Part shown: one piece after another, positions 53,735 through 59,287 of the stretch
How positions within the stretch are numbered: the stretch's first letter is position 1
Layout of the letters: each line of letters begins with the position of its first letter
Source: Candidatus Heimdallarchaeota archaeon
GTDB lineage: Archaea; Asgardarchaeota; Heimdallarchaeia; JABLTI01
Reading direction: 5' to 3'
DNA: 64,000 nt
NCBI GenBank assembly: GCA_019056785.1
Contig: DXJV01000029.1
Location: forward strand, 32,001 to 96,000
Position numbers and translations under genes: made by a program
Notes under the pieces: generated by a model
Database searches by the model: none
Told to the model about the DNA's origin: nothing
The model's input: only the letters and a program-made list of their open reading frames with translations

Positions 53735-54397
53735 ATGCATAAACTCGATAAGACAGATTTAAGGATTTTATCTACACTTCTCGAAGATTCAAGGACAAGT
53801 TATGCAGCTCTTGCACGAGAAACCAACTTGACTATTCCCTCAATTAAAACTAGAATCCAGAAATACATTGATTCCGGCTTAATTGAGAAATTCACCATCA
53901 TCCTAGACACACAAATGATTATGCGAGGAACCTCGATGACATTTTTAATGAAGGTTAAACCGAGCGACTTGGATCAAATTGCAAAAGACATTTACGATAG
54001 CCCGTTTATAGCCAATATGACTATTACTTCAGGTCATTATAATTTACTAATTGTCACTCATCCAATGAGCGATAAAGATAAGCTTGAATTTATTAAGAAA
54101 ATTAACTCCATCCCGGGAGATTCAGTAATGGAACTTGCTTCCTCAATTAACTTGGAAACATTTATGTGCAAACCCATTGAATTGCCAAATACGCCAATCA
54201 ATCTTTTAATCCGTTGTGATTATTGCCATCGAGAATTCTCCGGCGAGATTTTTTCGAAAGCAATTTTAGGAAGAAAGAGGTATTTCTGCAGTCCTTTATG
54301 CCAAGAAAAATACGAGGATCGGGCAGAAAAGTATATCAAAGGCGAATTATTCACTCACCCAGACAAGGAAGCAAAAAAAGCCGAAACGAAGGATTAG
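53735..54397 (+). CDS. Lrp/AsnC-family regulator with a C-terminal TRASH domain
   Basis: LDKTDLRIL..L.EDSR HTH; C-terminal CDYC...YFCSPLC. Confidence 0.88.
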   Translation: MHKLDKTDLRILSTLLEDSRTSYAALARETNLTIPSIKTRIQKYIDSGLIEKFTIILDTQMIMRGTSMTFLMKVKPSDLDQIAKDIYDSPFIANMTITSGHYNLLIVTHPMSDKDKLEFIKKINSIPGDSVMELASSINLETFMCKPIELPNTPINLLIRCDYCHREFSGEIFSKAILGRKRYFCSPLCQEKYEDRAEKYIKGELFTHPDKEAKKAETKD

Positions 54398-55288: not shown

Positions 55289-55555
55289 TTAAGCCTTACT
55301 AATGAAAGGCTTGGCTTTTTCACCATTTGAGCAAGTTGGAATATCTTTAGTGGAACCACAAGTCTTGTCGTGACAAACGAGTTTGTCACCTTCAAGCTCC
55401 ATTAGCTCTCCACAGCAAACAGGCCAATCGATAATTGTGCCATCGTCGCATTTGAACACGAGTTTCATTTCCGCTTCTTGAGCTTTGGTATGTGTTTCTT
55501 TCAATTTTACACCTTTTAAAGCATCTTCGGATATTTCAATTTCTTTGTCAGACAT
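55289..55555 (-). CDS. Small Cys-rich metal-binding protein with a WH2/beta-thymosin-like N-terminus
   Basis: From ATG 55555: MSDKEIEISEDALKGVKLKETHTK followed by C...PVCCGELM...CHDKTC...PTC (88 aa). The longer ORF-track start overlaps the upstream gene. Confidence 0.7.
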   Translation of the reverse strand: MSDKEIEISEDALKGVKLKETHTKAQEAEMKLVFKCDDGTIIDWPVCCGELMELEGDKLVCHDKTCGSTKDIPTCSNGEKAKPFISKA

Positions 55556-55679
55556 TGGTTTTAACACCATCCTCTTTTGTAGATGGATTTGCTTCCTATT
55601 TAATATTACGTTAGAGACATTCCAAATATAAATTTGATTCTCTAGCCACAGGCTAAAGCAAAAGAAAAGAAAGCAAAGC

Positions 55680-56879
55680 CTATTTGGCAAGATAGTTCCA
55701 AGCAGTTAAAGCCAGAACTGCACTGCCAACAGGCAAGGCATCTTCATCGACATCGAATTTGGGGCTGTGACCAGGATATTTAATACCTTTTTCTTCGTTT
55801 CGTGTTCCAAGCCAAAACATGGAGACGGGGATACGATAATTGTCACTGAAATCGTAGAAATCTTCAGCGCCCATTGTAGGTTCCTCTTCAATTACGAGTT
55901 GGTCCTCACCAAACAAGTCTATCACAGCATTTTTGATATGTTGATTCAAAGAAGGATCATTAAACCCCGGATTGTAGCCAAGGTCAATTTTTGTAGCAAT
56001 TGTTGCACCAAAACTTTTAGCAACACCTTCTGTGATTTGTTTTATTTGTTCCCAGGTGGCTTCGCGAACATCTTGCTTCAAGGCACGAATTGTTCCTGAG
56101 AGGTGAGCGGTTTCAGGGATAATATTATAGGCAGAACCCGCATGAAATGTTCCGACAGTTACAACTACCGGGTCAACAGGGTCCGTACTTCGAGAGGCAA
56201 CTGTTTGGAGAGCAACAACAAGATGTGAAGCAACAACAATGGGGTCCACCGTTTCGTGTGGGGCAGCAGCATGACCACCTTTTCCAGTAATATCGATATA
56301 GAATTTATCAGCACTGGCAGTAAAGCTGCCATCTTTGATAACAACTTTTCCAGTGTCATATTCATCAAAGACATGCAATGCTATAACAGCGGAAACCTCT
56401 GGGTCAGCTAAAGCTCCGGCTTCAACCATCGGTCGAGCACCACCAAGCCCCTCTTCTGCTGGTTGGAAGAAGAATTTAACATTCCCTGGTAATTGTTCCT
56501 TTAGCCGGCTGAGAATCTTTGCCACACCTAAGAGGATAGCAGTGTGCGCATCATGTCCACACATATGAGCTTTCCCATCGTGTTTTGATTTGTAAGAAAC
56601 ATCATTTTCCTCCTGGATGGGCAGCGCATCCATATCAGCACGGATTCCTATTGTTTTTCCAGTACCCCCTTTGCCTTTTAATAAAGCAATGACACCTGTT
56701 TTTGCCACACCTATTTTCACTTCGAGTCCCAGTTCTTTCAACTTCTTTGCAACATAAGCTGCCGTTTGATGTTCTTCAAAACCCAATTCTGGGTACATAT
56801 GAAAATGTCGTCTATCTGTGACCAGTTCCTCTTTTATTTCATTTGCAATTTTCCAGATTTCTTTTTTCATGTTTTTCAA
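55680..56879 (-). CDS. M20D amidohydrolase
   Basis: HMYPELGFEE, RADMDALP, HMCGHDAH, FQPAEEG, GGHAA, AEDF, HSPKF. Confidence 0.93.
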   Translation of the reverse strand: MKNMKKEIWKIANEIKEELVTDRRHFHMYPELGFEEHQTAAYVAKKLKELGLEVKIGVAKTGVIALLKGKGGTGKTIGIRADMDALPIQEENDVSYKSKHDGKAHMCGHDAHTAILLGVAKILSRLKEQLPGNVKFFFQPAEEGLGGARPMVEAGALADPEVSAVIALHVFDEYDTGKVVIKDGSFTASADKFYIDITGKGGHAAAPHETVDPIVVASHLVVALQTVASRSTDPVDPVVVTVGTFHAGSAYNIIPETAHLSGTIRALKQDVREATWEQIKQITEGVAKSFGATIATKIDLGYNPGFNDPSLNQHIKNAVIDLFGEDQLVIEEEPTMGAEDFYDFSDNYRIPVSMFWLGTRNEEKGIKYPGHSPKFDVDEDALPVGSAVLALTAWNYLAK

Positions 56880-57196
56880 CGGCCTTTTTTCTCGGGAGTA
56901 GTAATGACGTCTCTCTTTTTATATTTCTTGATACTCTTTAGAATCGCTTTTTCAGGGTTTAAATCCAACCCCCGACCTAAAGCTATGACTGCAAAAAGCA
57001 AGTCACCAAATTCCTCGAATAATTTTTCCCTGCTGGTTGTTTTGTTGGGGTGCAATCCAGCGCTAATTTGTAATTCCTTAGAAAATTCACCCAATTCCTC
57101 AATCACTGGTTCTATCAGCCATTCCTTTTGCCAATAGCCACCCAGTGAGGTTATCAAATTGTCAATTTCAAAACAAATTTCCATAAAGTCAACCAT
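56876..57196 (-). CDS. MazG-like nucleotide pyrophosphohydrolase
   Basis: GGYW, EELGE, EEFGDLLF, KYKKRD. Confidence 0.85.
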   Translation of the reverse strand: MVDFMEICFEIDNLITSLGGYWQKEWLIEPVIEELGEFSKELQISAGLHPNKTTSREKLFEEFGDLLFAVIALGRGLDLNPEKAILKSIKKYKKRDVITTPEKKGR

Positions 57197-57235
57197 TGTC
57201 CTCGCAAAAAGAGAGGAGATTATCCAAAAAAAAGG

Positions 57236-59287
57236 TTACGAAGACAAGCGGAGAAATTGGTCCCGCTGATGTTCGGATGCACTTACCAACCAAAAAGTTT
57301 CCCGTAAGAAGGAAATCGCTTCCTCAAGGAGAGCCTGTTTTTGAAGTTTCAAAGCATCCTCAGACAAAGTAGGTTGCTTTTCTTGAATTTTTTGTATTTC
57401 TATAAGGTCAGTTTGAATTGTTTGCTCAAAGGTTTCCATACCCAGATCTTTTGCCAAGTCGATTGCTTCAGTGAGCTCTTCGGAAGCCTCTTTGAAGTTA
57501 TCTTTATAGAGCAAAATTTTCGCAAGCACTTTTTTCGTGTACATCGTTAGTGGTAAAAATTCCAGATCGAGGGAGATAAATAACATGTCGTCTAAGTTTT
57601 GCATTACTTCTTCGAGAATCGTTTGGTCCTCTTGTACCAAATATTTCAATAATAAAACAGTTGTCTTTTCAATCAAAACAAGAGCCGGCGTTAAGGCAGA
57701 GGGGAAGTCCTGCACTTGCTCGTACATATTGGAAAGAAGCTTTTCTGCTTTCAGCAGCTCTTTCTTTTGTATCTGGAACCTAATCCGAGAAATTATTGCT
57801 TGGGCATTTTCTTCCTGGTTGGCATGAATAGAAGCGAAAAGATCGGCACGATTAATGTAGGATTCGGCAAGCGAAAATTTGCCCAGCGCAGTTGAAATTT
57901 CGAACAACCAGTTCAGAATATCAAAATAAATTTCATCCTTCTTGTTCAATTTGGTGCAAATATGTAATGCTTTTTCAAATTCATCAAAAGCAGTTGTTAA
58001 ATTACCGACAATGGCATTTAGCTGCCCCAGTTTGATATGGTCCATTAGGAGTTCTTCTGGAGGGGCGTGGTATTTCACTTTAAACTCCAGGGCATTTGTA
58101 CGTGTTTCCACTGCTTCTTTAAAATTTCCAGCGATGAAATTAACATAAGACAAACCATCAAAGATGGGTGTAAGAAGAATAGTGAAGCTATGATTCTGAG
58201 CGATTTCAAGGGCAGTTTGATAATTGGTCAATGCTTCTGCATACTTTCCTTTTCGCGCCAACAGCTTAGCAATATTAGTTAAGGCAATCACTTTATTGTA
58301 ATCATCAGTTAAATTTGTCGCTTGTTCGAGCAGTTCAAAGAAATATTCCTCTGCTTTGGTAAATTGTTGTTGACTTTCAGAAACAAAAGCAAGATTTTTT
58401 ATGCAATTTACAACGCCAATTTGATCCTTAAGAGCAACATAGGTTTTTCGTGCTTCTAAATAATTTTTCTCTGCATGCTCATAATCTCCCAATGCGGCTT
58501 CCCAATCTCCACGCAAGCAAATGGCTTTTGCCTTCAGTGCTTTGAAATTAAATGATTGGAAGATGACAGAAACCTCTTCAAATAACAATTCTAGCTCCTG
58601 AAAGTTCTTCTGGACGATGGAATAATGGATTAAATCCAAAAGGAATTGAGTCATAAAATAGGGTTCTTCTAATTGTTTTGTTAATTGATAGAGCGTTTTC
58701 GTTTCTTCAATGAGAGCAAGAGTAACAATCTCAGCTGCTTTGACATGCGAAAGGACAAGATAAGCAAGTAAAAAAAAATGATCAAAATCCGGAAGAGAGG
58801 CATTCTTCTCTTGAAACGAATGAATCTTCTCCACCACAGTTTTAAGGTTCTCTTTATTTTTATAACCACTTCTAAACAATATTTGAGCAAGAGCGCCCAA
58901 ACATTCGATGTAGACCATCGGGTCAGAAGTCTCTGAAATCTCTTTCTCAACTTGTTCTAAAAGCTCAATTGCATTTGAGATTTCTCCTTGTTGGGCCTCT
59001 GCCAGAGCAAACCAAACTTTCGCCCCGGCGTTTGTCTGAATTTCTTTGGCAAACTCATTCAAATAAGCATAATCTGCCAGCATATACGCGATTTTTGCTG
59101 CGAGGTAACGTAATTCATGATCGTCTTCTGGAAGGGTAGGGGATTTCGAAATGCGCAGAAATCGTTTGAAAAAAACCTTCGGATCTTTTGAGTCTAACGC
59201 AAGACGATCGAATTGAAATTCAATTGCATCTAGGGACTCTTGAGAGAGACGACTTTCATGCGTTTTAAATGCTGTTGGGAGGACCAC
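57236..59287 (-). CDS. TPR-repeat protein
   Basis: Repeats such as LGDYEHAEKNYLEA, GKYAEALTNYQTAL and GNFKEAVET. Confidence 0.88.
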   Translation of the reverse strand: MVLPTAFKTHESRLSQESLDAIEFQFDRLALDSKDPKVFFKRFLRISKSPTLPEDDHELRYLAAKIAYMLADYAYLNEFAKEIQTNAGAKVWFALAEAQQGEISNAIELLEQVEKEISETSDPMVYIECLGALAQILFRSGYKNKENLKTVVEKIHSFQEKNASLPDFDHFFLLAYLVLSHVKAAEIVTLALIEETKTLYQLTKQLEEPYFMTQFLLDLIHYSIVQKNFQELELLFEEVSVIFQSFNFKALKAKAICLRGDWEAALGDYEHAEKNYLEARKTYVALKDQIGVVNCIKNLAFVSESQQQFTKAEEYFFELLEQATNLTDDYNKVIALTNIAKLLARKGKYAEALTNYQTALEIAQNHSFTILLTPIFDGLSYVNFIAGNFKEAVETRTNALEFKVKYHAPPEELLMDHIKLGQLNAIVGNLTTAFDEFEKALHICTKLNKKDEIYFDILNWLFEISTALGKFSLAESYINRADLFASIHANQEENAQAIISRIRFQIQKKELLKAEKLLSNMYEQVQDFPSALTPALVLIEKTTVLLLKYLVQEDQTILEEVMQNLDDMLFISLDLEFLPLTMYTKKVLAKILLYKDNFKEASEELTEAIDLAKDLGMETFEQTIQTDLIEIQKIQEKQPTLSEDALKLQKQALLEEAISFLRETFWLVSASEHQRDQFLRLSS

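Follow-up and report, generated by a model that had tools for sequence, protein, structure and literature searches.

A short minus-strand gene in a 64,000-nucleotide stretch of a Heimdallarchaeota contig (the whole stretch analysed, hereafter the window) encodes an 88-residue protein, P0001, in which an N-terminal tail is joined to a Cys-rich domain that, by profile comparison, is homologous to accessory modules at the termini of Asgard copper-type P1B ATPases. This is a genuine gene, conserved in Heimdall-group Asgard archaea; its domain is built on an internal repeat shared with the pump modules, and its tail is held under strong constraint. Within this frame we tentatively read P0001 as a two-part soluble protein, a half-decayed double zinc-ribbon with a docking tail, which might serve as a metal-dependent adaptor or chaperone-like factor.

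A sequence-only reading of this stretch had described a small protein with a distinctive N-terminus, resembling actin-binding peptides, and six cysteines. Minus-strand translation confirmed the open reading frame at 88 residues, opening MSDKEIEISEDALKGVKLKETHTK, with Cys at C36, C47, C48, C61, C66 and C75 and the stretch PVCCGELM present (Table 1). The genuine start codon is the ATG at 55555, as the 88-residue homologues all begin MS[DE]K. A 133-codon frame from TTG 55690 was rejected as an over-extension, homologues being 88–89 residues long with that same beginning. Some database entries of the family, P0014 (118 aa) and P0016 (101 aa), have starts upstream of the conserved Met that are probably mis-called, as is that of the 133-codon frame, which adds 55556–55690. 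The spacer that divides the P0001 gene from the upstream M20 peptidase gene is AT-rich, with TATA-like stretches at 55624–55632 and 55597–55608, and to judge by its sequence probably holds the gene's own promoter.

Table 1 Features of the P0001 gene and its upstream spacer, in window coordinates.
Feature	Position	Strand	Basis or remark
Complete coding sequence of the 88-residue protein P0001	55289..55555	(-)	Stop codon 55289-55291
N-terminal tail, residues 1-29, highly charged	55469..55555	(-)	pN/pS, pLDDT
Core motif K17-L-K-E-T-H-T-K24 in the tail	55484..55507	(-)	Family consensus [KG]-L-E-H-V-E-T-K
Cys-rich double zinc-ribbon module, residues 30-88, two duplicated knuckle pairs	55292..55468	(-)	Model, repeat, hhalign, fold matches
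Four Cys of knuckles 2 and 3 (C47, C48, C61, C66)	55358..55417	(-)	Ligand tally, alignments A4 and A5
Intergenic spacer of 124 bases, upstream of the P0001 gene	55556..55679	(-)	Read from sequence

Nineteen close homologues of 88–89 residues matched P0001 over its full length at 62–78% identity, all of them labelled Asgard or Heimdallarchaeota. Searching 1.8 billion representatives brought in further members at 39–48% identity, and a profile search added about 30 more; those that carry names come from Promethearchaeota, Hodarchaeales and 'Thorarchaeota', and some bear the JGI label 'primosomal protein N''. By whole-genome search, 11/11 genomes in the family to which the window belongs encode the full-length form, as do some of family f3, isolated genomes of f2 and f7, and one genome from beyond the class; distant copies were almost confined to the same Asgard class. 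Several matches to free modules of 56–66 residues (G207:C18, G142:C205, G188:C87 and others) showed in-frame TGA or TAA, which probably reflects alignments that extend beyond the start of a short open reading frame.

AlphaFold2 modelled residues 30–88 as a beta-rich domain with pLDDT 80–86. Distant members of the family carry a half-module twice (K-C-x2-C-G ... P-x-[C/H]-C-G-x-x-M), and the two halves of one relative, P0028, could be aligned with each other at E 2e-8 with 11/20 positions identical, revealing an internal repeat. The family profile also matched open reading frames of 900–1070 residues in many Asgard genomes. The frame at L075:1960–5013 (+), of 1017 residues, is a P1B-type ATPase in which Pfam recognises E1-E2_ATPase, Hydrolase and two HMA domains; two copies of the module lie within the first 150 residues, a region that matched no Pfam family at E <= 0.01. 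When the family was compared with this ATPase N-terminus by hhalign, the two aligned at 95.2% (E 2.6e-8) over P0001 residues 33–82. A fold search of the ESM Atlas independently reached a cluster of 1007-residue TRASH/HMA P-type ATPases, along with three clusters of free 55–59-residue Asgard proteins at TM 0.80–0.83 (normalised by the hit's length). Because the module recurs on P1B ATPases with HMA and TRASH domains, the P0001 domain is part of a heavy-metal trafficking repertoire.

The placement of the module on these pumps varies. In Heimdall-group P1B ATPases of about 940–1020 residues (L075, L028, L030, L033, L035 and L074), one or two modules precede two HMA domains at the N-terminus. In another Asgard family (L079–L082 and L085), ATPases of about 960–1010 residues end in the module, which comes after a Lys/Glu-rich linker and one or two YHS/TRASH domains. 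In L036, a 238-codon open frame (+) has a single copy of the module after a TRASH-like C-x2-C ... C-C-x2-C motif, itself preceded by an N-terminal region.

Searches that started from P0001 itself gave little. Pfam and NCBIfam scans of P0001 found no match, and phmmer, run with the whole protein and with residues 1–35, returned nothing meaningful among solved structures. The first structural model drew weak, unrelated rows only from Foldseek 'pdb' and a wide VIA-align comparison (E > 0.5, Z at most 4), and scores in an ESM Atlas feature search, at 0.75, lay under the level reached by shuffled proteins. On the family as a whole, Pfam gave only sub-threshold zinc-ribbon and Desulfoferrod_N matches. 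The Cys-rich metal domain proposed in the sequence-only reading stands, sharpened to a double zinc-ribbon akin to P1B ATPase modules, whereas the desulforedoxin likeness proposed with it turned out to be weak.

Pump-borne modules and free modules of 55–60 residues have the same duplicated knuckles as P0001 (C-x2-C ... [C/H]-C-G-x-x-M ... C-x2-5-C ... [C/H]-C-G-x-x-M), from which P0001 differs in that two of the eight ligands are gone and in that it has a conserved 29-residue N-terminal tail, which neither the pump-borne nor the free modules carry. Relatives with all eight Cys/His ligands exist; P0001 falls short of the full four-knuckle, eight-ligand set, with its six Cys and with knuckle 1 reading C-D-D-G and knuckle 4 C-S. 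In the window's clade knuckle 2 is still C-C and knuckle 3 still C-x4-C, and one ligand is left in each of knuckles 1 and 4. In P0021 and P0023 the ligands of knuckles 1 and 4 number 0 and 0, with knuckles 2 and 3 kept as C..H and C-x2-C; where knuckles 3 and 4 carry His-His, C-x2-C remains in knuckles 1 and 2.

Throughout alignments A4 and A5, the ligands of knuckles 2 and 3 are kept in every family member and those of knuckles 1 and 4 are lost jointly. Since knuckles 1 and 4 lose their ligands together while 2 and 3 keep theirs, the pattern is most simply explained by nested sites, an outer one made by knuckles 1 and 4 and an inner one made by knuckles 2 and 3. P0001 would then keep one complete four-Cys site, with C47, C48, C61 and C66 as its surviving metal site. 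Its ligands, together with the HMA and YHS/TRASH domains to which it is fused elsewhere, suggest that the module binds a transition metal. We propose that the eight Cys/His ligands of the ancestral module would have held two metal ions, that in the window's clade the loss of one ligand each from knuckles 1 and 4 would have left the second site vestigial, and that the surviving four-Cys site may still bind Zn, Cu or Fe.

Gene neighbourhood offered no lead, synteny being kept inside clades only. The order in the window's clade is TPR, MazG, M20 peptidase, the P0001-family gene, HAD and AsnC regulator. In the window, 55680–59287 (-) carries a same-strand run of upstream genes whose ends overlap or abut, coding for a 683-residue TPR protein, a 106-residue MazG-like pyrophosphohydrolase and a 399-residue M20 peptidase; the TPR–MazG–M20 order is retained in the close relative L006. 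In a Hodarchaeales-type clade, all three of the three loci (L070, L072 and L073) have an MFS transporter on one flank and, convergent on the other, a MeaB-type G3E GTPase, with a CitMHS/ArsB permease in L070 and L073. Other relatives adjoin ETF-QO or ftsZ. At L008 4501–6270, ftsZ is followed after 265 bases, on the same strand, by the Hodarchaeales-type homologue P0031, an arrangement not seen in other clades. A gelsolin gene 5 kb upstream is taken as chance; no actin-related neighbour recurs.

Nor did any conserved neighbour tie the family to copper genes across clades. Two genes from P0001, the window encodes a 220-residue AsnC/Lrp-type HTH regulator (53735–54397, +) with a C-terminal C-x2-C ... 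C-x3-C, and this regulator–P0001 arrangement is kept in L006. The C-terminal stretch of the regulator gave a weak TRASH match (PF24273, E 0.0014, below cut-off); an AsnC-HTH followed by TRASH is the domain order of archaeal CopR copper regulators (PMC7830388). A second copy of the module was not found in the window's own genome, and because that genome's own P1B ATPase has an HMA domain only, a like-to-like pairing of chaperone and pump is not evident in the window's clade.

The tail is the best-kept part of P0001: over seven coding sequences without gaps, all from the window's clade, pN/pS is 0.23 for codons 2–29 against 0.57 for codons 30–88. Synonymous positions in this set approach saturation (pS about 0.6). 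Among 38 sequences only two columns are invariant, L18 being one of them, and conservation reaches at least 90% at T23 and E10; the conservation of L18 and T23 was repeated in wider sequence sets. Conservation of the motif among Asgard homologues, which the sequence-only reading had put forward as a check on its proposal, was therefore borne out, with L18 invariant and T23 nearly so. The core motif occurs once only among this genome's open reading frames. Lys/Glu-rich linkers that precede the C-terminal module in some ATPases align to profile positions 8–30, and we considered whether the tail belongs to the pump module; this was rejected, as the linkers do not contain L-x-x-V-E-T.

With an alignment of 38 diverse sequences, AlphaFold2 gave residues 1–29 a pLDDT of 48–56. 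A shallow alignment of 19 close sequences yielded instead a helix at residues 16–27 with pLDDT 77–82 and a short strand at residues 6–7 (pTM 0.63). As confidence falls to 48–56 with the deeper alignment, the tail is not confidently packed, and from these models it is probably flexible or disordered. We tentatively read it as a short linear docking motif. We propose that the charged tail, through a motif L-x-x-[T/V]-x-T-K, would dock a partner protein, and that by such docking P0001 would act as the metal-dependent adaptor or chaperone-like factor.

The helix at 16–27, at a pLDDT of about 80 in the shallow-alignment model, means that the tail may pack on the domain instead of docking a partner. 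Such a helix would lie on the zinc-ribbon beta-sheet, either replacing the stabilisation lost with the second site or gating the site that remains. L18, A25 and A28 fall on one helical face when the sequence is drawn as a helix, and packing into the core would produce strong constraint. Yet relatives with the full eight-ligand set also have the tail and conserve it, and free and pump-borne modules fold without it; the tail is also very hydrophilic, and the deeper alignment leaves residues 14–23 below pLDDT 50. We consider a structural role of this kind unlikely.

The sequence-only reading had proposed a possible metal- or redox-linked binder of actin monomers with a thymosin-beta/WH2-like motif. 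In such a peptide L18-K-E-T would lie along the actin face in the manner of LKKT, and the metal module would make binding dependent on metal or redox state. An ungapped comparison of P0001 with thymosin beta-4, whose sequence was verified against papers, gave 9/24 identities in register (MSDK, K17, L18, K19, T21 and T23), and G15 stands three residues before L18, as in GxxLKK. Profile comparison with 15 beta-thymosins by hhalign reached 65.7% (P 5.8e-5) for A4, the alignment weighted to the window's clade, and 19.7% (P 1.2e-3) for A7, built from diverse tails, scores that 0/300 column shuffles attained. As a single pair, P0001 and thymosin beta-4 scored only 13.5 bits in BLASTP (E 0.12). In an anchored N-terminal score P0001 ranked 2nd among 17,974 Met-started 26-mers of this genome, so that chance alone should supply roughly one N-terminus this good in each genome. 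The caveat of chance similarity that came with the original proposal has accordingly been answered in both directions, the genome-wide ranking upholding it and the column shuffles speaking against it. Overall the thymosin likeness of the tail is intriguing and statistically weak.

Established family models did not recognise the tail. PF01290 (Thymosin) gave no match to P0001 at E <= 10 and was not among the families listed for the 38 members; in the genome scan it listed two other places, which score higher, and not P0001. WH2 (PF02205) had no match in P0001, in the 38 members, or at the P0001 locus in the genome scan, where it too scored other places higher. A scan of 201 Asgard genomes and of control genomes with PF02205 gave no match at all, and so the model has little power here.

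Several details of the tail depart from the thymosin pattern. The central LKKTET, with two basic residues, is represented in P0001 by LKETHT, with one; most of the wider family reads LEHVET or LEHTET, Glu-His replacing the basic pair. MSDK, which supplies four of the nine identities, becomes MSE(E)K in the wider family. WH2 domains have an amphipathic helix of two to three turns, with about three hydrophobic side chains, shortly before L-[KR]-[KR]-[VT]. In the AlphaFold2 models the pre-motif segment of the tail is helical at residues 10–13 or 10–15 only. Hydrophobic residues are scarce in it, and M/I6, V/I8 and L13 do not line up on a single face; members of the wider family have just E-L there, and the distance to the Leu varies between clades. 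A second, C-terminal helix, which in thymosin caps actin on its pointed-end side, is absent, the motif leading directly into the strand at residues 30–35 of the Cys module.

The biological setting is in part favourable to actin binding. The motif Leu and Thr are the most conserved positions of a tail that is strongly constrained and probably disordered, and among the genes of this genome are a two-domain gelsolin and an actin resembling those of eukaryotes (443 bits). Tail-bearing forms turned up in Asgard archaea only. LKKT-like motifs within Asgard gelsolins bind actin (PMC9433394) and contact it in crystal structures (PMC9433394, PMC7444086), and an acidic variant, LVDV, binds actin using calcium (PMC9433394). 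If the tail bound actin, a cation might stand in for the basic pair in LEHVET, by analogy with that Loki gelsolin LVDV. Against this, the family is patchy within the class (2/29 in f2 and 3/11 in f4) where actin is general (10/10 in f2 and 3/3 in f4), and it has no conserved actin-related neighbour.

Weighing all this with the Pfam misses, the single-pair BLASTP score and the consensus without a basic pair, we judge actin-monomer binding by the tail improbable. A native Heimdall-group thymosin-beta/WH2-type peptide fused to a metal module, coupling the sequestration or delivery of actin to metal or redox state, we likewise regard as a long shot. To our knowledge, free thymosin/WH2-type peptides are regarded as eukaryotic, and a literature search found no description of one in Asgard archaea. 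If the tail does bind actin, it would add a monomer-binding module, tied to metal chemistry, to the pre-eukaryotic actin toolkit.

That P0001 is a small zinc-ribbon factor for nucleic acids or for the replication, transcription or translation machinery is also highly unlikely: the PriA Cys-rich region is the best sequence match among solved structures (A5 profile, E 1e-3, 46 residues), with weaker rows to RNA polymerase subunit M and Zn-ribbon RNA-binding proteins, some members carry the JGI primosomal name, and one relative lies among translation genes downstream of ftsZ, but these matches rest mostly on Cys-knuckle spacing, P0001 is net acidic, its gene neighbourhood is not conserved, and homology to the copper-pump modules is far stronger.

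Even with no role in actin binding, P0001 is of interest in three respects. A Cys/His module recurs on copper pumps throughout the Asgard archaea, and Pfam did not recognise it in the one ATPase scanned. In one lineage its metal sites have apparently decayed while a tail of some 30 residues was kept under tight selection. The tail would be a clean archaeal case of a short linear motif, whose partner should be retrievable with a peptide.

Thymosin beta-4 and WH2 peptides (PF01290, PF02205) share with P0001 an in-register L-K-x-T-x-T, a Gly three positions ahead of its Leu, and the form of an N-terminal, probably disordered peptide of similar length; unlike them, the P0001 tail is fused to a metal module, has a weakly hydrophobic pre-motif helix and is followed by no C-terminal helix. 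The only published Asgard WH2-like motifs are the linkers of two-domain gelsolins, LRRV, LKHV/LRRT and LVDV (Akil et al. 2020, 2022). Those linkers are four residues set between domains that themselves bind actin, whereas P0001 has no gelsolin domain.

For the Cys-rich part, the PriA region (PF18319) has the same four-knuckle double zinc-ribbon spacing as the P0001 family; the helicase context is absent here, and PriA rows in the ESM Atlas reached TM 0.39–0.43 when normalised by the query. Neither the PriA nor the desulforedoxin matches reach family thresholds. The desulforedoxin/desulfoferrodoxin N-terminal domain (PF06397) has CCGE-x-M in common with P0001. PF06397 gave no match for P0001 and was sub-threshold in 11/38 members (best E 0.078), P0001 does not have the second Cys of the first-knuckle C-x2-C that belongs to the PF06397 ligand set, and VIA-align against desulforedoxin (1cfw_A) was weak (Z 2.4, rmsd 2.5 over 32 residues, 28% identity). 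The metallochaperones CopZ/Atx1 (HMA) and CopM/CopT (TRASH) of archaeal cop clusters differ from P0001 in fold, and P0001 has no adjacent copA and shares its genome with a pump that has HMA only; like P0001, they are small soluble proteins whose fold recurs as an accessory domain of pumps.
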